Of a DNA stretch of 64,000 nucleotides, positions 18 to 64,000 are shown piece by piece. Under the pieces are notes generated by a model. The model was given only the letters and a program-made list of their open reading frames with translations. It was not told the DNA's origin and made no database searches. Location: sequence record PQ306574.1. The stretch is one strand, 5' to 3'. How positions within the stretch are numbered: position 1 is the first letter of the stretch; each line of letters opens with the position of its first letter. The translations under genes and the position numbers were made by a program. This DNA is from Escherichia phage vB_EcoM_PTE-Eco09.

Positions 18-3000
18 TTAGTCTTCCCAGATAAAGTCTACGGTACGAGTCAGATTATTGGCGATGATTTTAACATTACCAACCTTGATCCAGTCACGAA
101 CCGTCATAGAGTTCATTAAACCACCTTCTGCAACAACTGCCCCGATTTCCTGAGCGGTAGGCTTATTCTGTTTGGTGTAAATTTCACCCCATGCGGTCCA
201 TTGACCACCAGTACCGGAACGGATATAATGTTTATGAGTACCATCAGGGGACCAAAGCTGGGTAAGCCCGTCCGCGTCAGTACCCCATTGCATCAGAGTA
301 CCGTTTTTCTTCTCTGGATAAGTTTCTTTGATGTTCTGGGTAGTAACTCGCATATTCCAGAAACCGATGTTACCGATTGCCGGAGCGGTTGCCGCGCTAG
401 CTTCATGCTTAACAGAAACAATAGGCGCATTATCCATAGTCAGCTTGCCGACCATTGTATCGCCAGCATTCTTAACAAACCGACGGTTAAGAACTTCGTC
501 GGCGTTTCCTGCGTGTACGATCTGATATTTCTGTCCGGCGATCTCTGTAGTTAACGTTTGAGAACCTGCCTTGATGTTAACACTTCCACCGTGACCGATA
601 TTCAGCGTACCATCTGGGGAACGAGTCATTGCCGGATTAGACTGGTCAACAATGTATAAACCGCCTTGTTTCGCATACAGGTTACGACCTGCAATAAAGT
701 CTCTATATGCTGTCGCGTCGCCATTGTGTTTCATAGCAAAGGCGTAATGCTCAACGACTCCACCATCATTGATTTTACCGAAAGAGATAGCATCACTATC
801 AACAACTTGCGCTGTTCCAGTACCACCAACGATAATAGACCAAGAGTTTTTCATTCCTTCCGATGCGGTTGTGCCATGCAGAGTAATTCCGGTGTGACCG
901 TCAACTCCACGATCACCCAACACCAGATGACCATTACTCGGAACATCGGTCGAGTTCTTAGTCACAGACAGAGTTTCAAAGGAACCTGATTTTAAGCACT
1001 CTAAATCGCCCTTCACGTTAACGTTTTTATTAAACGTGTAATTGCTCTCTATGGTCTGATCAATGTCTCTACGCGCCCATTTAGAGGCCTCTACGTTACC
1101 CAATTTCAAACTATTCTGAGCGGTTGCCATCTTAGGTAAGAAATTAGCAAGTGCGTAGTTTAATCCTTTAGGGGTAACAGCAATTCCGTCATGCTGGTAG
1201 TTTCCTAGTTCTTGAGTAGAACCTTGCAGATTATCACCAACAAAACAGTTTTCCTGAGTAGCAACTTTCAAGAATCCACGACGCGCTTCGGTTGCTTTCC
1301 ATGTATCCTCTGTCTGAACAACATATTTGAAGTTCTTCGGAGAAATTGCTACATTGTCCATAATACCAGCCACGGTTTCGGCGTGAGTACCAACTCGGAT
1401 AATACCTTCTTTACCTTCGGTGGCCTTTTTGCCTTGCAGCTTTTTAGGCGTGATGATTGTAGTATCATCTTGACCAGCGTCAGTAAGCTGAGTAGTCGCA
1501 ACTTTAGCGACACCTTTTGTATCTTCGGTTGCATCCAGACCGCTGATCATGATACCTTGCCACAAATCACCAGTAAGGTTAAGCCCCTGAGTCGGATCTA
1601 CTTTCAAACGCTGTGCATTCTCAAAGAAGGTTTTAATCTTCAATGGGGTAGAAATGCGATCATCGTCACGACCTGCGTCAAATTCCGGCTGAGTTGCAAT
1701 TTCTGCTAAACCGTGTAAAGTTTCCGTTGCGCGGCGAGTATGCAACTTTTTAGGCGTGATGATATGGTTATCACTTTGACCTAAGTTTGTTTCTTCCTGA
1801 GTTGCAATTTCAGCGATACCAGTGCGCGATTCGGTAGCAGTACGTTTCGTTAGCGTGCGAGTCGTGATTAGTAAAGCATCTTGCGGGGTTGATTCTGTAG
1901 CCCCTTGCACTTCCGCGTCAGTTGCCAGATAGCCAACACCACGGGAAGTTTCGGTCGCCTTGACTTCGTTGATGTTTTGTGGCGTAACAATTTTAGCATG
2001 GTCGTTGATGTTATAGATCCCTGTACCAGCTTCGCCACGTCGAGCGGCAGCACTACCGCCAACCTGAACAATTTCAGCAATACCAGCGAGATCTTCGGAA
2101 GCGCGACGTTCTTCTAATTTCTTAGGAGTTATTGCGCGAGTATCGTCTAAACCTTCATTGGTTTCGTGCTGGGTTGCAATTTCCATCACACCACGACGGG
2201 CTTCGGTAGCAACACAGTCATTTAACTTTTTGGGTGTAACGATAACATCATCCAGGAAGTTGGAACCAGTATCTTGATGCGTTTCCGCTTGAGTCGCAAT
2301 GCGAGCAATACCGCGTCGAGTTTCGTTGGCTGTTTTATTAGACAGCATTTTTGGTGTTACAGCAACTTCGTCGCTAGGATTCTCTTCATGGTTTTTATTC
2401 GTTTCAGTCTGGGTAGCCAGTGCAATTACACCAACACGATCTTTACGAGTCGGATCTACTCGTTCTACAATCGGGTGAGCATGTGCCACCAACCAGTATT
2501 TCTTACCATCATCACCTTCTGAATAAGAGAACTCCAGATAAGGTACATAATCATTTGCAGCGTTGAAAGACAATTCAGACACTCCAGTCCATGTATCGGT
2601 CCCATTGAATGGGTACTCGCTACGCTTAGGAAACTGAACCATGTTTTTCTGCATAAGGATTTTTGTATCCTCTTCTGAGGTAATGATTCGGCAAGTCTGG
2701 TTTCCGTGCATATACTGCATAGAAACTTGAATACGATCACCCGGCTCGACATTGGTCGGCAGCGTCAGAGTAACATCACGACCACCAAATACAGCAACAT
2801 AGCTATTAGGTTGCAAGCGAGTGTCATTGATGATCGGTTTAAGACGAACAGACTGATCACCATCCCACAAACGCCATAAGTTTTCCGTCTTGTCAAAGAT
2901 GAATACACCATGACCGCTACGCTTACCGATAATCTCTTTTAGACCGGACGTGCCAATTGATTGTTCTTCTGCGTGCTCATGAACTTTAACCGTAACGTGG

Positions 3001-3758
3001 TTGGTTGCGGTTAATCCGTCAAGGTCTGTAGTCTGGATCATGTCGCCATTGTTGGCAAACTTAGGAAGCACTAAGGTAATATTACCCAACGAACTACGAC
3101 GAAATACCTGATCACCATTCTGCATTTGAATAGCATCAATCGCTGGCTGTGCGTACACACCGCGTGGCTCTGTTCCTGTCTGATAAACATGCCAACGATT
3201 ACGAACAAAGATGAAATAGTTCATTGCATACGGGGTAGTGCAATACCATTTTCGGTTGTACACATTACCGTTATGGTAAAACTCATGTCCTGTACTCAAA
3301 AACGATAATTCGTTAACACCACACTTGCCACCGATATCTTTTACTGTTATAGTGTCTCCCTCTGCTGGTTTAGTTGGCATAGAGAAAGTCAAGTTTGCAA
3401 ATTGACCATCTGCTGCGATATAATCACCAGACTGTAAAGGAGTATCACCGGAAGTTGCTGCAATATAATCCCAACGTGGGTCCGTGCGCAGTGCTTGCCA
3501 TTTAGTCGGGTCAAAATCACCTGCTGGCTTTGTGATATCTTCTTTTGCATAATACGGACGGTTTTGATAGATTGTAGTTCCGTATTGATCATAACCGCGA
3601 GTTGTGTCATACTGAGTAATGCCATTATGGTAATTGAAAAATTCAACGTTGACCGCATCCGTTGATGTGTTTTTATCTGCGTATGCTACATTGACGACCT
3701 TTTCATTACCAGCGTCAAAGCCAAATGTGGCCTTGAAATGTTGAGAAAAATCTGCCAT
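18..3758 (-). CDS. 34: long tail fiber proximal subunit (gp34-like)
   Basis: 1246-aa ORF; motifs IGGKxGVN, LPKFANNGD, ENLWRLWDGD, VQFPKRSEYP and C-terminal ...NVKIIANNLTRTVDFIWED match the T4 gp34 pattern as recalled; divergent from rnh as in T4. Confidence 0.85.
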   Translation of the reverse strand: MADFSQHFKATFGFDAGNEKVVNVAYADKNTSTDAVNVEFFNYHNGITQYDTTRGYDQYGTTIYQNRPYYAKEDITKPAGDFDPTKWQALRTDPRWDYIAATSGDTPLQSGDYIAADGQFANLTFSMPTKPAEGDTITVKDIGGKCGVNELSFLSTGHEFYHNGNVYNRKWYCTTPYAMNYFIFVRNRWHVYQTGTEPRGVYAQPAIDAIQMQNGDQVFRRSSLGNITLVLPKFANNGDMIQTTDLDGLTATNHVTVKVHEHAEEQSIGTSGLKEIIGKRSGHGVFIFDKTENLWRLWDGDQSVRLKPIINDTRLQPNSYVAVFGGRDVTLTLPTNVEPGDRIQVSMQYMHGNQTCRIITSEEDTKILMQKNMVQFPKRSEYPFNGTDTWTGVSELSFNAANDYVPYLEFSYSEGDDGKKYWLVAHAHPIVERVDPTRKDRVGVIALATQTETNKNHEENPSDEVAVTPKMLSNKTANETRRGIARIATQAETHQDTGSNFLDDVIVTPKKLNDCVATEARRGVMEIATQHETNEGLDDTRAITPKKLEERRASEDLAGIAEIVQVGGSAAARRGEAGTGIYNINDHAKIVTPQNINEVKATETSRGVGYLATDAEVQGATESTPQDALLITTRTLTKRTATESRTGIAEIATQEETNLGQSDNHIITPKKLHTRRATETLHGLAEIATQPEFDAGRDDDRISTPLKIKTFFENAQRLKVDPTQGLNLTGDLWQGIMISGLDATEDTKGVAKVATTQLTDAGQDDTTIITPKKLQGKKATEGKEGIIRVGTHAETVAGIMDNVAISPKNFKYVVQTEDTWKATEARRGFLKVATQENCFVGDNLQGSTQELGNYQHDGIAVTPKGLNYALANFLPKMATAQNSLKLGNVEASKWARRDIDQTIESNYTFNKNVNVKGDLECLKSGSFETLSVTKNSTDVPSNGHLVLGDRGVDGHTGITLHGTTASEGMKNSWSIIVGGTGTAQVVDSDAISFGKINDGGVVEHYAFAMKHNGDATAYRDFIAGRNLYAKQGGLYIVDQSNPAMTRSPDGTLNIGHGGSVNIKAGSQTLTTEIAGQKYQIVHAGNADEVLNRRFVKNAGDTMVGKLTMDNAPIVSVKHEASAATAPAIGNIGFWNMRVTTQNIKETYPEKKNGTLMQWGTDADGLTQLWSPDGTHKHYIRSGTGGQWTAWGEIYTKQNKPTAQEIGAVVAEGGLMNSMTVRDWIKVGNVKIIANNLTRTVDFIWED

Positions 3759-3792
3759 TATTGGGTCTCCTGTTATAATATGAAATTATTTA

Positions 3793-4374
3793 TTGTGTGA
3801 GGTGTTTGTTGTGGCAAAAACAAAATTTTGGGATATCGAGACACAGAAAGCGATAAAAGGTAGATTCTATCATGTCGATGGAATATTATACCATTTAAAG
3901 GATTCTGTAGCTGCTGGATTCCGAAAAGAAGGGTCCATATACAAAAAAGGTGATGTGGTAAGGGTATGTCTCCATAAAGAAGGATATTTATACTTTACAT
4001 TTTACAACAATGGTCATAAACTTAATCTGTTTGTACATAGAGTTGTCTGGTTTTTAGAGTATGGTACTCAGGTTGAACGAATAGATCACATAGACCAAGA
4101 CAAAACTAACAATAGACCGTCAAACATGAGAGAAGCAACCGAACAGCAAAATCAGTTTAACGTCTCAAAGAAAAAGGCTTGCCATAGCAAATATAAAGGT
4201 GTATCATTATCACCAAGCAAGAAAAAGCCGTGGAAGGCGTATATTGTTATCAATCGAAAGAATATACATCTAGGATACTTTGAGACAGAAGTTGAGGCGG
4301 CTAAGGCTTATGACCGTGCAGCACATGAAATAGTTGGCGAGTATGCTTATTTAAATTTTCCAAAAAGAGGATGA
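3793..4374 (+). CDS. HNH homing-endonuclease-like protein with AP2-type DNA-binding domain
   Basis: HNH-like block (IDHIDQDKTNNRPSNMRE) followed by AP2-like block (KPWKAYIVINRKNIHLGYFETEVEAAKAYDRAA); no in-frame ATG at 5' end, probable TTG/GTG start (3793/3802/3811) after SD GAGGTG. Confidence 0.55.
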   Translation: MCEVFVVAKTKFWDIETQKAIKGRFYHVDGILYHLKDSVAAGFRKEGSIYKKGDVVRVCLHKEGYLYFTFYNNGHKLNLFVHRVVWFLEYGTQVERIDHIDQDKTNNRPSNMREATEQQNQFNVSKKKACHSKYKGVSLSPSKKKPWKAYIVINRKNIHLGYFETEVEAAKAYDRAAHEIVGEYAYLNFPKRG

Positions 4375-4380
4375 TATATT

Positions 4381-4566
4381 ATGGTTAAAGTTGATTTGTC
4401 AGAAGGTGCAAAATGGGTAGTTGACAGAATCCCTGATAAGGATTACAATTATTTCCGCGCCGAATTAAACAATGCAATTCTGCGAGTTATGGAGAAGTAC
4501 GGGTATGACCGTGAAGTATCTAACTCGTTTGGCGAATATGTTGTTGTGAGAGTGGAGAGAACTTAA
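4381..4566 (+). CDS. hypothetical small protein
   Basis: 61-aa ORF tightly packed between HNH gene and rnh, ATG start; no recognisable domain. Confidence 0.4.
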   Translation: MVKVDLSEGAKWVVDRIPDKDYNYFRAELNNAILRVMEKYGYDREVSNSFGEYVVVRVERT

Positions 4567-4568
4567 TT

Positions 4569-5516
4569 ATGACGTATAACCCATTTACAAAAACGACCGC
4601 TACACTTAATGATTTCTTCGATGATCCAGAAGATAAACTGCCGGAAGGTGTGCATTTGATTGATATGTCGCAGCTTATGATTGCTACTATCTCACATACC
4701 TTTAAACCGGAAGATCCTATTAATGAAGGTATGATCCGTCATCTTATCCTTGACACCATGCGTTATAATATGACAAAATTCAAAGAGCAATACCCAATTA
4801 CGGTACTTGCCTTTGATTCAAGCAAAGGTTACTGGCGACGTGATATCGCCCCTTACTATAAACGCAACCGTAAGGAAAAACGAGACGCAGATCCGCGTGA
4901 TTGGGAGATGATCTTTGCTGCGATCAATAAGATCACCGAAGAGTTTAAAGAGAACATGCCTTATCACGTTATTAAGGTTGACAAAGTTGAAGCGGATGAT
5001 ATAATCGCTGTATTAACTAAAAAGTTTTCTGTAGAAGGTCGCCAGGTGCTAATCAACTCCGGCGATGGTGACTACACACAGTTGCACAAATACAAAAATG
5101 TGAAACAGTGGGCACCAGTACAGAAAGCGTGGAAGAAATGCAAATATGGTAGCCCTTACAAAGACCTTATGGTAAAATGTGTTAAGGGTGACGCAAAAGA
5201 CGGTGTAGCTTCTATCAAGTGCCGTAGTGATTTCATTATCTCACGACTGGAAGGAGAACGAGCTAAACCAATTGCAACCAAATGGTTAGAGCAAATTTTC
5301 GATGCCGAAGATCCAAAGTCTTTGATGACAGAGGAAGAAGCACGACGCTTTGACGAAAACCGCGAACTTATTGATTTTGAATTTATTCCTGATAACATCG
5401 AATATGAAATTTTGTTAGCATGGGAAAAATCTAAACCAGCACCACGCGGTAAAATTTATAACTATTTTGTAACAAATGCGTTAGTTAAAATGTTGCAGAA
5501 AATTGGTGAGTTCTAA
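4569..5516 (+). CDS. rnh: RNase H (5'-3' exonuclease / flap endonuclease)
   Basis: 315-aa ORF; strong similarity to recalled T4 RNase H (YWRRD..YYK.NR, MPY..., EADD.IAVL.KKFS.EG, GDGD(Y/F)TQLHKY.NVKQW, IPDNI, PPRGKIY.YFV). Confidence 0.9.
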   Translation: MTYNPFTKTTATLNDFFDDPEDKLPEGVHLIDMSQLMIATISHTFKPEDPINEGMIRHLILDTMRYNMTKFKEQYPITVLAFDSSKGYWRRDIAPYYKRNRKEKRDADPRDWEMIFAAINKITEEFKENMPYHVIKVDKVEADDIIAVLTKKFSVEGRQVLINSGDGDYTQLHKYKNVKQWAPVQKAWKKCKYGSPYKDLMVKCVKGDAKDGVASIKCRSDFIISRLEGERAKPIATKWLEQIFDAEDPKSLMTEEEARRFDENRELIDFEFIPDNIEYEILLAWEKSKPAPRGKIYNYFVTNALVKMLQKIGEF

Positions 5517-5526
5517 GGGTTGACAC

Positions 5527-6126
5527 ATGAAAGAACTTGAATTAAAATACTATGCACACTCACAAATTGGCGTCGAAACCATCTGTGATTTGTGGGTGGC
5601 AATGTATGACGGGTACAATCTCTTAGACCGAGATAACATATTAAAACACGAATTTTATTATGATACCGAAGATCATGCGCTACGTCAAAAAGGAATTTAT
5701 GCACGACTTGACTGTAGAAAATCAGAGATCATGGTCAAAATGGGTGATAATGAATCTGGACTATTCAACCGCGAGGAAATGACATTTTCAAATTGGGATG
5801 AGTTCGTCCATTTTATTGATAGTCTAGGGGTAAACTCCGACTATATCACTGCAATAATGCAAGTAATGACATATCGCAAGTCATTGACTCTAGATATGGG
5901 TTGTGGTATAGTGGAAATGTGCAAAGACACTTTCTATTATGGCAAAGTAGGCGAAGGATTGGGAAACACTGCTCATTATGAACTTGAGTTCGAGTTAAAA
6001 TCAGGTGATGAAAAAGCACTTGACATTATCCGAGAAATGATGCTAGAATATGTTGGTGACGATTTAAGTCCTAGCGAAATTTCAAAAGCTGAACGTGGTT
6101 TTCAATTAATGACGAAAGAGGGTTAA
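5527..6126 (+). CDS. CYTH-like (triphosphate tunnel metalloenzyme) domain protein
   Basis: 199-aa ORF beginning MKELELKYY (ExExK signature) with C-terminal acidic HYELEFELK motif; inserted between rnh and dsbA-like gene relative to T4 order. Confidence 0.45.
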   Translation: MKELELKYYAHSQIGVETICDLWVAMYDGYNLLDRDNILKHEFYYDTEDHALRQKGIYARLDCRKSEIMVKMGDNESGLFNREEMTFSNWDEFVHFIDSLGVNSDYITAIMQVMTYRKSLTLDMGCGIVEMCKDTFYYGKVGEGLGNTAHYELEFELKSGDEKALDIIREMMLEYVGDDLSPSEISKAERGFQLMTKEG

Positions 6127-6131
6127 ATATT

Positions 6132-6407
6132 ATGACTGAACAGAAAAAAGAAAAAGTAGTATTCGATGAAAATGTACACGGAAATACCCTGGCACAACTG
6201 ATTAAAGAAGCCAGCGATCAGAAAACCATTCAAGAAGCATATGGCGATAAGATCAAAGAGATCAAACAGCGTGCTAAAGAAGAATTAGGCGTAGATGGTA
6301 AAATGTGGGGCATTCTGTTTAAACTGTATCACCAGCAACAGCGCGAAACCTTCGAAGCAGAACGCGACGAAGCGGTAGAACTCTATGATCGGGTGTTCAA
6401 TGCTTAA
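6132..6407 (+). CDS. dsbA: DsbA-like dsDNA-binding protein (by synteny)
   Basis: 91-aa basic/acidic ORF in the position of T4 dsbA between rnh and 59; assignment by size and synteny only. Confidence 0.35.
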   Translation: MTEQKKEKVVFDENVHGNTLAQLIKEASDQKTIQEAYGDKIKEIKQRAKEELGVDGKMWGILFKLYHQQQRETFEAERDEAVELYDRVFNA

Positions 6408-7344: not shown

Positions 7345-7368
7345 CAAGTAAATTTAAATCTGTATAAT
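7341..7368 (+). promoter_or_regulatory. sigma70-like promoter (TTGACA-16-TATAAT) upstream of gene 32
   Basis: TTGACA at 7341-7346, TATAAT at 7363-7368, followed by AT-rich leader before gene 32 (possible translational operator region). Confidence 0.5.
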
Positions 7369-7404
7369 AGTCTAGTAAATTAATCAAAAGAAGGAATAGT
7401 GAAT

Positions 7405-15563: not shown

Positions 15564-16211
15564 ATGAACTTACAAAAACTACATGACGCAATCATAGAAA
15601 AAGCAAAGACGAGAGGAACCGTTGAAGGGTATAAGGAAACACATCATATTTTACCGCGATCTATGGGTGGCGGTGATGAAGTTGATAACCTGATTGAGTT
15701 GACAGCAAAAGAACATTTCGTGATTCATCATCTGCTAGCAAAAATTCATGGTGGACCTATGGCACAAGCATTTGGTATGATGTGTTTAGCAAAAAATGCG
15801 AAGACCAATAAAAGAGATTATATTGTTTCGTCTAGGGTATATGAACAAGCTAGGGTACTTATCTCTGAACAAAGAAAGGGCAAACCTATGAAAGAAGAAA
15901 CGCGAAGAAAGATTAGCGAATCTTCGAAAGGTGTGTTGAAATCAGAAGAGACAAAAGCTAAAATGCGTAAGCCAAAAACAAAGGAGCACGCGTTAAACAT
16001 TTCAAAAGCTAGAATGGGCAGTAAAAATCCTATGTTTGGGAAACCATCGCCAACTAAAGGAATACCACATAGTGAGGAAATGAGAAAGCTGATTGCACAA
16101 AGGACAAAGGAAGCAACAATGGCAGATCCTTGTCCGCATTGCGGTAAAATTACCAATAAAGGCAATTCTCTACGATGGCACTTTGATAACTGTAAAATGA
16201 GGAATATGTGA
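15564..16211 (+). CDS. mobE: HNH homing endonuclease with NUMOD3-like repeats (mobE-like position)
   Basis: HNH motif (THHILPRSMGGGDEVDNLIELTAKEHFVIHH) and repeated K/R-rich NUMOD-like motifs; located between nrdA and nrdB as T4 mobE. Confidence 0.7.
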   Translation: MNLQKLHDAIIEKAKTRGTVEGYKETHHILPRSMGGGDEVDNLIELTAKEHFVIHHLLAKIHGGPMAQAFGMMCLAKNAKTNKRDYIVSSRVYEQARVLISEQRKGKPMKEETRRKISESSKGVLKSEETKAKMRKPKTKEHALNISKARMGSKNPMFGKPSPTKGIPHSEEMRKLIAQRTKEATMADPCPHCGKITNKGNSLRWHFDNCKMRNM

Positions 16212-24575: not shown

Positions 24576-26058
24576 TATCATTAATCAGCTTGCAGCAACA
24601 GACAAAACATCGCTGAAAGAAAAGATTCTGAAAGAATCAGCAAGCAATGAAACGCTGAAAGAATGCTTTTATCTGGCATATTGCAAACAGGTTACGTTTG
24701 GCGTAAAGAAATACGATAAACCGTCTCGCTATTCGTCTGTATTGTCTTTATCCGGTGCATTACAGGTCTTTAAAAATAAACTTGCCACGCGTCAAGTAAC
24801 TGGTAATGCAGCATTACAACTAGTTACCGATACTCTGACTTGCTTGTCAGAGGATGATGCTAAAGTTGCAATGATGGTCCTGAATCGTGATCTGGAATGC
24901 GGCTGTTCCGCTACCACTGCAAACAAGGTATGGAAGAAACTGATCCCCCAGCAACCGTGCCACCTTGCATCGTCATGTTCTGATAAGACTATTGCTAATA
25001 TCAAGTATCCGGCGTATGCACAACTTAAAAGCGATGGCGCTCGTGGTATGGCTGATATTGACGGGGAAACATTAGCAATCTATACCCGCTCAGGTAATAC
25101 CTATCAAGGGCTTGATGATTTGTTTGCGGTTTTAGAGCGTCTACGAGGCCGTGGAATTGTTCTAGATGGCGAATTGGTATATATGCCTACCCTTTCGCAA
25201 ACACCAGCGCAGAACTTCGTTGAAAGCGTTTATGATGGTACTCTGTCATGGATATTTGAAGAAGAGGAAATGCCATTAACGCCAGTAGCGGAAGCAGTGA
25301 AAGAATCCGTTGTTGCAGATCGTCAGACCGGAAATGGTATCCTCAACAAATCACTTAAAGGAACTATTCCAAAAGAAGAAGCCCAATGTATTGTTTACAC
25401 TGTCTGGGATGTTATCGACCGTGATGTGTATTACGGAAACGAGAAAGCAACGAAGCAATATAAAGATCGATTCGAAGAACTAAAACAGATTGTTGAAGAA
25501 CTTAACGATCCTCGTGTTCAGATCATCGAAAACACTGTAGTTAACAATATCGATGAAGCTCGCGAAGTATATCATCGTTATGTCAACATGGGCTTAGAAG
25601 GTATTATCCTTAAAAATTTACATGGTGTATTTGAAGATCGCCGTAGTAAAGATCAGGTTAAATTTAAAGAAGTGATTGACTTCGACGCGGAAATTGTTGA
25701 TGTATATCCGCATAGTAAAGACCCCAATAAGGTAGGCGGTTTTACTGTCCGTAGTGCGTGCGGACGAATGATGACTAACACCGGATCGGGATTAACCGAC
25801 ACTACAACCGAAAAAGGTGATGATGGTATCGAACGTGTAATTCCGTTCGATCGTCGAAATGAACTCGACCGAGAAATGTTATGGGCTGACCGTCATAACC
25901 TGATTGGAAAAGTCATTGAGATGACATGCAACGGGTATATCCGCAGCAAATCACGTAAAGAAGATGAACCGGAGTTCTCTTTATTTCTCCCAATCATCAA
26001 ACGTATTCGCTACGACAAGACCACTGCAAATACAGTAAAAGAGGTATTCGATGTGTGA
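24562..26058 (+). CDS. 30: ATP-dependent DNA ligase
   Basis: Long matches to recalled T4 ligase (LTGNAA, RDLECG, ANKVW..LIP.QP..LASS, PAYAQLKADGAR, GIVLDGELVY, ASNGI.NKSLKGTI.KEEAQC, IENQVVNN.DEA, GLEGIILKN, RSK..FKEVID.D..IV..YPH.KDP.K.GGF, GSGL, LFLPI..R.R.DKT.ANT). Confidence 0.9.
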   Translation: MSILNIINQLAATDKTSLKEKILKESASNETLKECFYLAYCKQVTFGVKKYDKPSRYSSVLSLSGALQVFKNKLATRQVTGNAALQLVTDTLTCLSEDDAKVAMMVLNRDLECGCSATTANKVWKKLIPQQPCHLASSCSDKTIANIKYPAYAQLKSDGARGMADIDGETLAIYTRSGNTYQGLDDLFAVLERLRGRGIVLDGELVYMPTLSQTPAQNFVESVYDGTLSWIFEEEEMPLTPVAEAVKESVVADRQTGNGILNKSLKGTIPKEEAQCIVYTVWDVIDRDVYYGNEKATKQYKDRFEELKQIVEELNDPRVQIIENTVVNNIDEAREVYHRYVNMGLEGIILKNLHGVFEDRRSKDQVKFKEVIDFDAEIVDVYPHSKDPNKVGGFTVRSACGRMMTNTGSGLTDTTTEKGDDGIERVIPFDRRNELDREMLWADRHNLIGKVIEMTCNGYIRSKSRKEDEPEFSLFLPIIKRIRYDKTTANTVKEVFDV

Positions 26059-26527
26059 TAATGAAGGGGCGAAAGCCCCTAAACCTAAAAAATTGTCAAA
26101 GAAAGAGCAACGCCAGATCCTGAAAATGAAATATGGTGGACGTTGTGCCTATTGTGGCGAGGAACTAGGGGATCGCTGGCACGCGGACCACATCAAACCA
26201 GTATTGCGACGCTCAAAGGTAGTCTATGATGAAAATGGACGAATTGCCCGTAATGATGATGGATCATGGAAATATAAGGTTGTAGGAATGCATAAACCGG
26301 AGCATGATATACTTGATAACATGAATCCGGCGTGTGTGCAATGCAATCTTTATAAAAGCTGTATGGGCTTAGAATACTGGCGTAAGTGTATACGCGAGAA
26401 CTTCCAGAAGTACATTCAGCGCAATATGGGATTGCGAGCGGCTAAACGCTTTGGCTTGCTGTCAATCCACGACCAGCCAGTAGAATTTTATTTCGAAAAG
26501 TACGATCGCGAGCATCAAGAAAAATAA
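26051..26527 (+). CDS. HNH endonuclease
   Basis: Cys pairs and HNH core: CAYCG...WHADHIKP...N...CVQCN. Confidence 0.65.
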   Translation: MCDNEGAKAPKPKKLSKKEQRQILKMKYGGRCAYCGEELGDRWHADHIKPVLRRSKVVYDENGRIARNDDGSWKYKVVGMHKPEHDILDNMNPACVQCNLYKSCMGLEYWRKCIRENFQKYIQRNMGLRAAKRFGLLSIHDQPVEFYFEKYDREHQEK

Positions 26528-44557: not shown

Positions 44558-46060
44558 TTAAATTTCGATTGTTTTGGTTGAATAATCGAATTTATCTTCG
44601 TTGTACACTCGAACCCTTTCTATGCCGTGCTTAGTTGCGTAATTGAGATGACTATATTGCTTCTTAGCGGTCTTACTCTTTGTCTTTATACCCAACAAAT
44701 CAATAATATCCCATACATAAGCAATATCCTTAGAACCATGCTTACGCAATGCACGACCAATACTTTGACGAACAATAGTAGACTCTTTGACAGGATGACC
44801 GAAAATTACATGGTGTAAGTTCTTGATAGAAACGCCAGTAGAGAAAACGCCGTAGGAGGCGACGCAAATGATCCCGGTCTCTCCTTCCGCTAATTTTTTG
44901 AACTCGTCTCGTTCCGCAGTCTTAACCCCACCATCAATGTAGTAAACCTTATCATGTACCTTCTGTAAGGCTTCATACATCATTTTTCCGTGTTTAGTGT
45001 TGCGAAACATTAAAAAGACGTTTTCGTTCTTCTTAGCGAGTTTTAGTGCCAAATTACACACAAACTTATTCCGTCTGCCGTGTGAAGTTATATATTTGAT
45101 CTCTTCCGCGTATTCTTTCCCCTTAATAGCCGCGCATTCATCATCAGCATATTTTAGGAATAGACAGTTGATTTTCAGTTTTGTAACTTGTCCTTCATCC
45201 ATAAGACGATCAATACTTACGATCCTAGATATATCTCCAAACAATCCAACGTATTGCAAAGCATTACACTTACCCTCACGAGGTGAACCAGTCATACCAA
45301 TCTTAAATTGGCAATGAGTCATATCATTTACAATATTTTGAAGGTTTTTAGCGGTTGCTTTGTGACATTCATCGACAATAACCATTCCGTATTGCTGGAA
45401 CCACTCTTTAGGCATCTTACATGCAGATTGCCAAGTTGAAACAGTTATCAATCGTTCCCCCGGATGTTTTTGGCTACCACTCATCATTGTATGGATAGCC
45501 TCAAAAGGGAATAGCCTATAATCAATGAAGTCATCACGCATCTGGAGAACAAGAGAAGTAGTTGGAACAATGATTAACACCTTTCCCTCGTAGTTTTCCA
45601 GATACCATCGAGATAATAAACAAGCAATCAAACTTTTACCAGCAGAAGTAGGCAAAACTAACATTCTACGACGATTATGTATACCCTGAAATACAGCTTC
45701 ACTTTGATACCAGTGAGGGGTGATCTTATTAGCGCCAGAATATATCGCCAACGAACCGATCCAACTGTCAATGTCTTCTTTAGTGATTTTCTCCTTTTCC
45801 AGAAGACGGGGATCAATCCAAACAGAATAGCTCATATTCTTAGCAAAGATACCCAAAGTTTTGATCAGTCCGATAGGAAGAGTGTTTTCATAGGTAAATA
45901 GCCGGATTCGCCCATCCCATTGCCCGTAGCGATAACGAGGATTAAATCTTGCACCTTCAATCTCAAAAGAAAAATAGTCTCGTAGTTCCATAGATATTGA
46001 ATCAGAGCATTCAATTTTAACAAAACTATAATTCATAAAATGCACATGAATATCTTGCAT
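44558..46060 (-). CDS. uvsW: DNA helicase UvsW
   Basis: Extensive match to recalled T4 UvsW (HWYQ, NRRR.L.LPTSAGKSLI, YLENYEGK.LIIVPTT, DEC, GSPR.GK.N..QYVG.FG.I, KLKIN, HG..NK..., VASYGVFSTG.S.KNLHHV, KHGSK.IA.VWD.ID, Y.HLNY..KHGI.R). Confidence 0.9.
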   Translation of the reverse strand: MQDIHVHFMNYSFVKIECSDSISMELRDYFSFEIEGARFNPRYRYGQWDGRIRLFTYENTLPIGLIKTLGIFAKNMSYSVWIDPRLLEKEKITKEDIDSWIGSLAIYSGANKITPHWYQSEAVFQGIHNRRRMLVLPTSAGKSLIACLLSRWYLENYEGKVLIIVPTTSLVLQMRDDFIDYRLFPFEAIHTMMSGSQKHPGERLITVSTWQSACKMPKEWFQQYGMVIVDECHKATAKNLQNIVNDMTHCQFKIGMTGSPREGKCNALQYVGLFGDISRIVSIDRLMDEGQVTKLKINCLFLKYADDECAAIKGKEYAEEIKYITSHGRRNKFVCNLALKLAKKNENVFLMFRNTKHGKMMYEALQKVHDKVYYIDGGVKTAERDEFKKLAEGETGIICVASYGVFSTGVSIKNLHHVIFGHPVKESTIVRQSIGRALRKHGSKDIAYVWDIIDLLGIKTKSKTAKKQYSHLNYATKHGIERVRVYNEDKFDYSTKTIEI

Positions 46061-46064
46061 CACA

Positions 46065-46796
46065 TCACCTTTTAACAAGTTTTCCAAGAACAAAACCATC
46101 AGGAGGGGTGTCACCGCGTTTCACGACCTTATTAACTACCCCGTTGTTATACCACTTACTACCAGTATGAAAATCGTTAAGCCTTGCTACACGCTCGGCG
46201 AGAGCACCGGACTCACGATCCTTTTGGACTTGTCTTAGACACATTTCCCTGTTAGCGGCTTTGCGTTCCTCCGTCCATTCTATATGGTCCCACCCAACAT
46301 GTAAATTACCCTTGACGAATCCGTCAGGTGGAGTTTCTCCATCTCGAACTCGTATAGATTTAACACCGTCGTTGTACCATGTGCTGCCGGAAACACTATC
46401 TCGCATACCTACTATTGCTTTTTTTAGTTTTCCAGTTTTCATATCACGTTCTACGCGCTCTTTGGCAGAAGAAGACATTTTAGCGCGTACAGAGTCTGAG
46501 TATACCTGGTCTCCGTCATAACGACCGCCAGTAACTACATTATAATAATTGGGATCTTTTACAATGTCAACAGTGACAAGTTCTTTTTCGTATAGGTAAG
46601 CATCTTGCTCGGTATCAAACATTTTTAATATGCGCTTCTCGAAGTTCTCAATGCCATATTTTTCAAATGCAGCACGAAGAAGGTCACCAGACCCCATATA
46701 TCCATCATGCATATTGTTAGTAGAATGTTTACCTATATACAATTTGCCGTTTACAAGATTCTTTATCTCATAAACATAATGAAATCTTTTAGCCAT
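46065..46796 (-). CDS. GIY-YIG homing endonuclease (Seg-like)
   Basis: N-terminal FHYVYEIKNLVNGKLYIGKHS GIY-YIG motif; C-terminal repeated DNA-binding modules (GSTWYNDGVKSIRVRDGETPPDGFVKG / GSKWYNNGVVNKVVKRGDTPPDGFVLG). Confidence 0.75.
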   Translation of the reverse strand: MAKRFHYVYEIKNLVNGKLYIGKHSTNNMHDGYMGSGDLLRAAFEKYGIENFEKRILKMFDTEQDAYLYEKELVTVDIVKDPNYYNVVTGGRYDGDQVYSDSVRAKMSSSAKERVERDMKTGKLKKAIVGMRDSVSGSTWYNDGVKSIRVRDGETPPDGFVKGNLHVGWDHIEWTEERKAANREMCLRQVQKDRESGALAERVARLNDFHTGSKWYNNGVVNKVVKRGDTPPDGFVLGKLVKR

Positions 46797-46868
46797 AGTA
46801 AAAATCTCCGTATGCAATAAATACAGTATACAAATATTTATACAAACACCCCCAATCAGGAGAATAAC

Positions 46869-61184: not shown

Positions 61185-64000
<2,816 letters not shown>

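Follow-up and report, generated by a model that had tools for sequence, protein, structure and literature searches.

A predicted free-standing AP2-HNH homing endonuclease gene at a conserved intergenic site of RB49-like coliphages

Our analysis of a stretch of 64,000 nucleotides (the window) from Escherichia phage vB_EcoM_PTE-Eco09 (PQ306574.1), an RB49-like T4-type coliphage of the genus Krischvirus, indicates that the open reading frame at 3793-4374 on the plus strand is a real gene which, judged from its sequence, encodes a free-standing homing endonuclease of the AP2-HNH class. We consider it likely (probability roughly 0.85) that this homing endonuclease gene (HEG) spreads by homing in Krischvirus. 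Both this type of gene and the sequence itself were known before; our analysis adds the site at base level, the start codon, a set of linked substitutions and a population signature, and the importance of these results beyond annotation is small. The coding sequence and its domains are as follows.

3811-4374, plus strand: predicted HNH-AP2 homing endonuclease coding sequence, 187 amino acids, GTG start, TGA stop at 4372-4374
4030-4155, plus strand: HNH_3 (beta-beta-alpha-metal) nuclease motif, Pfam match to residues 80-121 of the 193-codon ORF
4186-4338, plus strand: C-terminal AP2 DNA-binding domain, three-stranded sheet and helix, Pfam match to residues 132-182 of the 193-codon ORF

The first-pass annotation had claimed HNH and AP2 domains for this protein, and profile searches supported both. 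Pfam matched HNH_3 with an E-value of 1.6e-12 (47.3 bits, cut-off 24.8) and AP2 with an E-value of 3.6e-8; the AP2 score (34.0 bits) is just 0.7 bits over the Pfam gathering cut-off of 33.3, and this assignment is backed by sequence and fold matches in the PDB. The protein also matched phrog_99, 'HNH endonuclease' (PHROGs, E = 2.5e-46), and no family was found for it in NCBIfam. In phmmer searches of the PDB sequences, the C-terminal third matched the plant AP2/ERF proteins WRI1 (E = 3.4e-8), ERF096 (E = 6.9e-7) and AtERF1 (E = 2e-5), and residues 43-159 matched I-HmuI (E = 3.9e-4). An AlphaFold2 model built on 70 homologues (pLDDT 92.2, pTM 0.85) had I-HmuI (1u3e) as its best Foldseek match in the PDB, with 24% identity over 109 columns and a probability of 1.00, followed by the AP2 domains of WRI1, TEM1 and AtERF1 with an rmsd of 1.2-1.7 A and 39-44% identity. 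In the numbering of the 187-residue protein, the motif residues are H76, D92-H93, N101, N105, R107, N114 and N117. Among the 70 aligned homologues D92, H93, N105 and R107 are invariant and the remaining four are conserved in at least 90%, indicating that the HNH nuclease motif is complete.

The structural likeness to I-HmuI covers residues of about 43-159, that is, the N-terminal sheet and the beta-beta-alpha-metal motif, and the TM-score is about 0.4 over the whole chain. I-HmuI differs in being encoded by an intron and in having a helical C-terminal DNA-binding part with a helix-turn-helix instead of AP2. I-HmuI, from Bacillus phage SPO1, nicks one strand, and by analogy a nicking mechanism is plausible for the HEG protein. 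The C-terminal 60 residues have their fold in common with the plant AP2/ERF proteins (AtERF1 1gcc, WRI1 7wq5, TEM1 7et4), and the AP2/ERF motif YKGV...W...LG...AA.AYD is also found in the HEG protein, although the plant proteins are eukaryotic transcription factors without a nuclease domain.

AP2-HNH proteins have been recognised as a class of homing endonucleases since 2004 (Magnani, Sjolander and Hake 2004, as cited in PMC1524935 and PMC10448857). Genes of this class were pointed out in RB49 and RB43 (Nolan et al., PMC1524935), ORF040 of RB49 was noted again as AP2-HNH (Arbiol et al., PMC2839356), and others were noted for the ICP1 phages (Barth et al., PMC10448857). A tblastn search found no paralogues of the HEG protein within the window, and five paralogues, 39-53% identical, at other intergenic sites of Krischvirus genomes:

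upstream of gene 3 in AV108
between a-gt.4 and gene 47 in RB49 (RB49ORF040c)
upstream of vs.8 in JSE
after gene 39 in W115
between genes 61 and 56 in ELT3

RB49ORF040c resembles the HEG in having an N-terminal HNH_3 and a C-terminal AP2 domain in about 185 amino acids, and in being free-standing, intergenic and sporadic in T4-type phages. It aligns with the HEG protein over 97% of the length with 48.9% identity, but is a different paralogue, at a-gt.4 | gene 47 instead of gene 34 | ORF61-rnh, and begins with ATG instead of GTG. Closer to the window gene are those of G37-3 (QBO64846.1), FL15 (XAO14301.1) and pEJ01 (UYE95268.1) and the unannotated frame of KFS-EC, whose proteins are identical to that of the window, and ELT4_124 (UNY41502.1), which is one residue away. 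The ELT4, FL15, G37-3 and pEJ01 genes have the same site, the same GTG start and the same length of 187 amino acids; they stand in a different backbone, since the window has AV108-type flanks and the other allele of the neighbouring CYTH-domain gene. The ELT4 and FL15 products are named 'homing endonuclease', and those of pEJ01 and G37-3 'hypothetical protein'. Among the matches listed from a collection of 5.8 billion proteins, there were no relatives between 97% and about 53% identity; thus these matches pointed to no donor in another phage group. The mob genes of T4 (mobA-E) are likewise free-standing HNH genes lying between conserved genes and co-transcribed with their neighbours, and an AP2 domain is not mentioned for them in the review consulted (PMC2988022). 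None of the T4 mob proteins was among the close homologues listed.

The order of the genes around the HEG is gene 34, HEG, a 61-codon ORF (ORF61), rnh, the CYTH-domain gene, dsbA, 33, 59 and 32. The first-pass annotation had placed the HEG between gene 34 and rnh, at a junction of conserved genes. Its free-standing, intergenic position was confirmed, with gene 34 on the left and the conserved ORF61 on the right, but the immediate adjacency to rnh does not hold, as ORF61 parts the two. The same annotation had proposed a comparison with relatives lacking the insert. When the window was aligned with seven carriers and six empty genomes (AV108, Phi1, FL37, kvi, Delraymugoa and JSE), the site could be defined to the base, and the records searched divide into 8 occupied and 50 empty ones. 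The elements of the site are as follows.

18-3758, minus strand: gene 34, long tail fibre proximal subunit, left neighbour of the HEG
3787-3794, minus strand: gene 34 late-promoter box, AATAAATA in occupied and TATAAATA in empty genomes
3794-4362, plus strand: 569-bp segment confined to occupied genomes, in place of 21 bp (AAAATAAGGCTTGATAGAAAC) of empty genomes
4363-4380, plus strand: right junction AAAAGAGGATGA, identical in occupied and empty genomes
4381-4566, plus strand: ORF61 (61 amino acids; phrog_3594, of unknown function), which separates the HEG from rnh and occurs in all relatives
4569-5516: rnh (RNaseH_C, E = 2.6e-37)

The replacement of 21 bp by 569 bp agrees with the lengths of the locus. 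The left junction falls on the upstream edge of the late-promoter box of gene 34; TATAAATA upstream of gene 34 is the T4-type late-promoter consensus. On the right, AAAAGAGGATGA provides the three final HEG codons (K-R-G) and the TGA stop, and also the Shine-Dalgarno sequence of ORF61, GAGGA (4367-4371). With its junctions at the late-promoter box and at the next Shine-Dalgarno sequence, the element takes up no more and no less than the dispensable stretch separating two control elements.

A megablast search with positions 3000-6200 found 58 phage records, all from RB49-like coliphages of the genus Krischvirus. The query was covered completely (100%) in eight of them, which are occupied (ELT4, G37-3, KFS-EC as GenBank and RefSeq copies, PHB13, FL15, FL20 and pEJ01), and the remaining records gave 82% query cover in two pieces with the HEG absent. 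A 121-nt probe of the empty site of AV108 matched 50 records from end to end with at least 96.7% identity, whereas it matched the eight carrier records over its first 55 nt only (89.1%). The empty site, matched in 50 of the 58 records, is thus the common and conserved state, and the HEG is polymorphic for presence and absence at one conserved intergenic site, outside any intron or intein. A scan of IMG/VR with a left-flank pattern found only two contigs.

The occupied sequences fall into two alleles. Allele B, carried by PHB13, FL20 and the Logan metagenomic contig L022, differs from allele A, the main allele, by nine shared substitutions, five non-synonymous and four silent. PHB13 and FL20 each have a different +1 insertion, at 3942 (in an A6 run) and 3965, which truncates the protein and may reflect either decay or sequencing error. 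Public annotation of the HEG is inconsistent. In KFS-EC (L006, 3802-4365), RefSeq copy included, the gene is uncalled, and in PHB13 (L007, 3946-4365) and FL20 (L009, 4117-4365) the +1 frameshifts leave only 3' fragments called; in FL20 a spurious minus-strand ORF covers the 5' part. The GTG start is a cause of such annotation failures, from the uncalled gene of KFS-EC to the fragments in PHB13 and FL20.

The mechanical ORF of 193 codons (3793-4374) is preceded by an in-frame stop at 3781-3783. The non-ATG start claimed in the first-pass annotation, 'TTG or GTG', agrees with the absence of any in-frame ATG before codon 112, and the comparison with relatives narrows the choice among the candidates TTG 3793, GTG 3802 and GTG 3811 to the last one. 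We consider GTG 3811, giving 187 amino acids, the most likely true start instead of TTG 3793, on the grounds of the Shine-Dalgarno position, the deposited annotations, the N-termini of homologues and a deletion in allele B. A GAGG sequence at 3799-3802 lies 8 nt ahead of GTG 3811, a good Shine-Dalgarno sequence in composition and spacing. GTG 3811 is the annotated start in ELT4, G37-3, FL15 and pEJ01, and the representative of a metagenomic protein cluster (P0001, 187 amino acids) begins at the same GTG. The homologues begin 2-6 residues ahead of a conserved K-x-W-D motif and have no counterpart to the N-terminal MCEVFV of the longer frame. In allele B, a 1-nt deletion (T3805) means that TTG 3793 and GTG 3802 no longer lie in frame; in contig L022 the ORF is nevertheless intact from the GTG equivalent to 3811. 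The allele B frame and the missing N-terminal extension in homologues led us to reject TTG 3793 and GTG 3802 as starts. The remaining 5' part of the mechanical ORF is listed here.

3793-3810, plus strand: 5' extension of the mechanical ORF, containing the GAGG Shine-Dalgarno sequence, without a homologue counterpart and out of frame in allele B; probably an untranslated leader

The 5' region of the HEG folds modestly (-14.8 kcal/mol, z = -2.3). By prediction the Shine-Dalgarno sequence is for the most part unpaired (P = 0.75), with a start codon that is roughly half-paired in both alleles, so a hairpin sequestering the ribosome-binding site, of the kind known for I-TevI or segB, was not convincing. 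Low-level translation from the GTG start is something we infer only. A non-ATG start is not a trait of the family, as four of the five Krischvirus paralogues begin with ATG. In T4, mobA is likewise predicted to begin with GUG, the only free-standing HEG of that phage for which this is so (PMC2988022).

The HEG is accompanied by changes in the 5' untranslated region of gene 34.

3772-3786: six insert-linked substitutions in the gene 34 5' UTR (3772 T>G, 3778 G>A, 3783-3786 TTCA>AAAT)
3752-3779, plus strand: predicted sigma-70-like promoter CTGCCA-16-TATAAT, with an extended -10 TGTTATAAT at 3771-3779, from a consensus scan

All six substitutions were present in the nine occupied sequences examined, metagenomic contig included, and in none of the six empty genomes aligned, save for A at 3783 in Phi1. 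They may be either the co-transferred left arm of the cassette or changes conferring immunity on the target site. Two of them convert CTTTTATAGT to CTGTTATAAT and thereby form an extended -10 (TGnTATAAT) 16 nt after CTGCCA; the consensus scan scored 10 of 12 positions plus TG in the window, against 9 of 12 (TATAGT, without TG) in the empty AV108 site. By this pattern match, 3752-3779 is predicted to be an early promoter for a transcript of HEG, ORF61 and rnh, which would begin near 3786. The deleted 21 bp hold the TTGATA of a promoter-like site, TTGATA-17-TATATT, which was seen, again as a pattern match, only in empty genomes. That the six-substitution patch of 15 bp is itself a functional part of the mobile unit, removing the element's own target and rewiring the divergent control region, seems to us rather unlikely. 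If it were so, its TGnTATAAT would stand in for the deleted TTGATA-17-TATATT site, the late box would have passed from TATAAATA to AATAAATA, and the cassette would bring its own 'immunity plus promoter repair' arm.

To compare the element with its surroundings, we calculated pairwise diversity among the six carriers of the main allele; it was 0.18% in the insert and 2.4-2.9% in the 570-bp flanks. The insert is thus about 15 times less diverse than the flanks, and an element far less diverged than its flanks in different backbones bears the signature of horizontal spread. The closest backbone relative of the window, AV108, is an empty phage with 99.7% identity over the shared part, and the flanks of the window match it up to distances of 151 bp (left) and 83 bp (right). 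In the left flank, the window and AV108 both have G at 3434 and 3621, positions at which the other carriers all read T and A. On the right, C4446, C4458, G4497, C4509, A4583 and G4595 are common to the window, AV108, FL37 and kvi; no single database carrier has the full set, and at 4583 they all differ from the window. By these AV108-type markers, the exchanged segment spans no less than 3772-4362 (591 bp) and no more than 3622-4445 (824 bp). Since the next relatives in the right flank, FL37 and kvi, are also empty, a gain in the window lineage is more parsimonious than a loss in AV108, and on this ground gain is the probable direction of the exchange. These results are consistent with a recent acquisition of the HEG by homing in the window phage, although ordinary recombination of a young cassette could also explain the low diversity of the insert.

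The region around the HEG is otherwise a mosaic of recombination. The CYTH-domain gene (5527-6126, plus strand) has two alleles about 17% apart over 5501-6000, a 600-nt form in the window, AV108, FL37, kvi and Delraymugoa and a 597-nt form in all seven database HEG carriers and JSE; this gene thus forms a sharply delimited block of recombination, at a distance of 1.1 kb from the HEG. At the 5' end of gene 34, a short mosaic block of 12 substitutions in 23 bp (3660-3682), about 100 bp from the HEG site, divides FL37, kvi, Delraymugoa and Phi1 from the window, AV108, JSE and all carriers.

A mechanism for the spread can be proposed from what is established for I-HmuI and for free-standing endonucleases of T4 (PMC2988022). 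When carrier and empty phages infect the same cell, the HEG protein would be made from the GTG start on an early transcript which also carries ORF61 and rnh, and the GTG start may keep its level low. The AP2 domain and the N-terminal sheet would bind the empty allele, and the protein would nick or cut it close to the intergenic site between gene 34 and ORF61. Recombination-dependent repair of the T4 type would then use the carrier genome as template and bring the HEG, along with short tracts on either side, into the genome that was cut, and carriers would be immune owing to the replaced 21-bp segment and the six substitutions in the adjacent 15 bp. In T4, free-standing HEGs spread by such intronless homing, and often they are cassettes that lack a promoter and lie within existing transcripts (PMC2988022). 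The short tracts seen in the window hint tentatively at a cut near the insertion site, a reading which depends on the flanks of the donor. Together with the six linked substitutions, these tracts are also the only indirect indication of super-Mendelian inheritance with co-conversion of flanking markers. The DNA cut by a free-standing T4 HEG often lies hundreds of bp away from where the gene is inserted (PMC2988022), and thus the target of the HEG need not be the intergenic site.

Movement of the HEG as passive cargo, by ordinary homologous or PeSL-type recombination in which the nuclease has no part, would find a parallel in RB49 and phi1, whose optional ORFs are shuffled through promoter-stem-loop cassettes (Arbiol et al., PMC2839356). 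It would also agree with the highly mosaic region, with its many unrelated recombination patches, and with the promoter-like element immediately upstream of the insert. However, no G-tract/C-tract PeSL stem-loop was found in the 74-bp empty intergenic region or beside the insert, the sole terminator-like match is inside gene 34, and the two junctions share no repeat beyond an A-run. The full conservation of the catalytic motif and the confinement of the 15-fold drop in diversity to the insert, as expected of self-driven transfer, also speak against passive movement, which we regard as improbable. The arrangement of a PeSL cassette, an early promoter with a G/C-tract stem-loop on both sides (PMC2839356), does not apply to the HEG, where only the promoter-like element upstream was seen.

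The protein might, on the other hand, have been domesticated as something useful to the phage, such as a regulator of the gene 34/rnh promoters, a weapon that destroys or shuts out the genomes of competing phages or a silencer of defences. AP2 domains serve as sequence-specific silencers in the phage CasPR proteins (bioRxiv 10.64898/2026.02.23.707548), T4 intron endonucleases such as I-TevI double as autorepressors (PMC2988022), and the insert lies between two divergent promoters, with linked substitutions which alter both promoter-like boxes. Yet CasPRs are without HNH domains, while the nuclease residues of the HEG are conserved, and the absence of the HEG from 50 of the 58 close relatives together with the frameshifted copies in two carriers forms the pattern of a dispensable selfish gene and not of a fixed useful one, which makes domestication highly improbable. 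We give almost no credence to the window copy being an inactive remnant on its way to loss with its reading frame still intact: the window protein is identical to those of G37-3, KFS-EC, FL15 and pEJ01, all motif residues are present, and the AV108-type backbone argues for a recent transfer, even though the life cycle of HEGs predicts decay after spread, allele B departs from allele A at five amino acids and four silent sites, two isolates carry it in a frameshifted form, and GTG is a weak start codon. Spread by homing is our preferred reading of the HEG.

The case shows how a free-standing HEG fits a gap of 21 bp that has an essential late promoter on one side and the ribosome-binding site of the following gene on the other. 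For Krischvirus HNH-AP2 proteins, that of the window included, the literature searched gave no measurement of nuclease activity, of a cleavage site or of homing, nor was a biochemical characterisation found in it for HNH-AP2 enzymes of T4-type phages; a base-resolved pair of empty and occupied sites is provided here for this class. The window phage, a carrier, and AV108, an empty phage, are naturally near-isogenic and could serve directly in a homing cross.

The first-pass annotation had named four further elements of homing-endonuclease type in the window. All four ORFs exist, but the HNH assignment at 15564 was only weakly supported.

15564-16211, plus strand, 215 amino acids: NUMOD3 (E = 2.7e-9) and phrog_655 'homing endonuclease' (E = 1.8e-55), no Pfam HNH, weak IscB-like HNH stretch at residues 25-51
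26051-26527, plus strand, 158 amino acids: Pfam HNH (27 bits), phrog_2118 and weaker endonuclease VII-like PHROG matches
46065-46817, minus strand, 250 amino acids, mechanical start TTG: SegE-type GIY-YIG (E = 1.3e-8), resembling group I intron endonucleases
61188-63998, minus strand, 936-codon ORF: Terminase_6N and Terminase_6C (large terminase, gene 17) at residues 494-896, LAGLIDADG_3 segment at residues 362-420

As the HNH stretch of the first of these is weak, the label 'HNH-NUMOD' is supported only in part. The start of the ORF at 26051 overlaps the end of an upstream 500-amino-acid ORF by 8 nt, and the mechanical ORF at 46065-46817 overlaps the start of a downstream 518-amino-acid ORF (44558-46114) by 50 nt. 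The LAGLIDADG_3 segment in the terminase ORF, which runs almost to the end of the window, is consistent with an intein-type insertion.

An extra gene of 597 nt, annotated as HNH or homing endonuclease, is found between genes 59 and 32 in ELT4, FL20, pEJ01 and kvi (L004 7316-7912, L009 7315-7911, L010 7315-7911 and L013 6771-7367), where it overlaps the end of gene 59; the window is without it at the gp59 | gp32 junction (7345-7398). This position between genes 59 and 32 is presumably that of segG in T4. The gene 32 promoters of T4 are located inside segG (PMC2988022).
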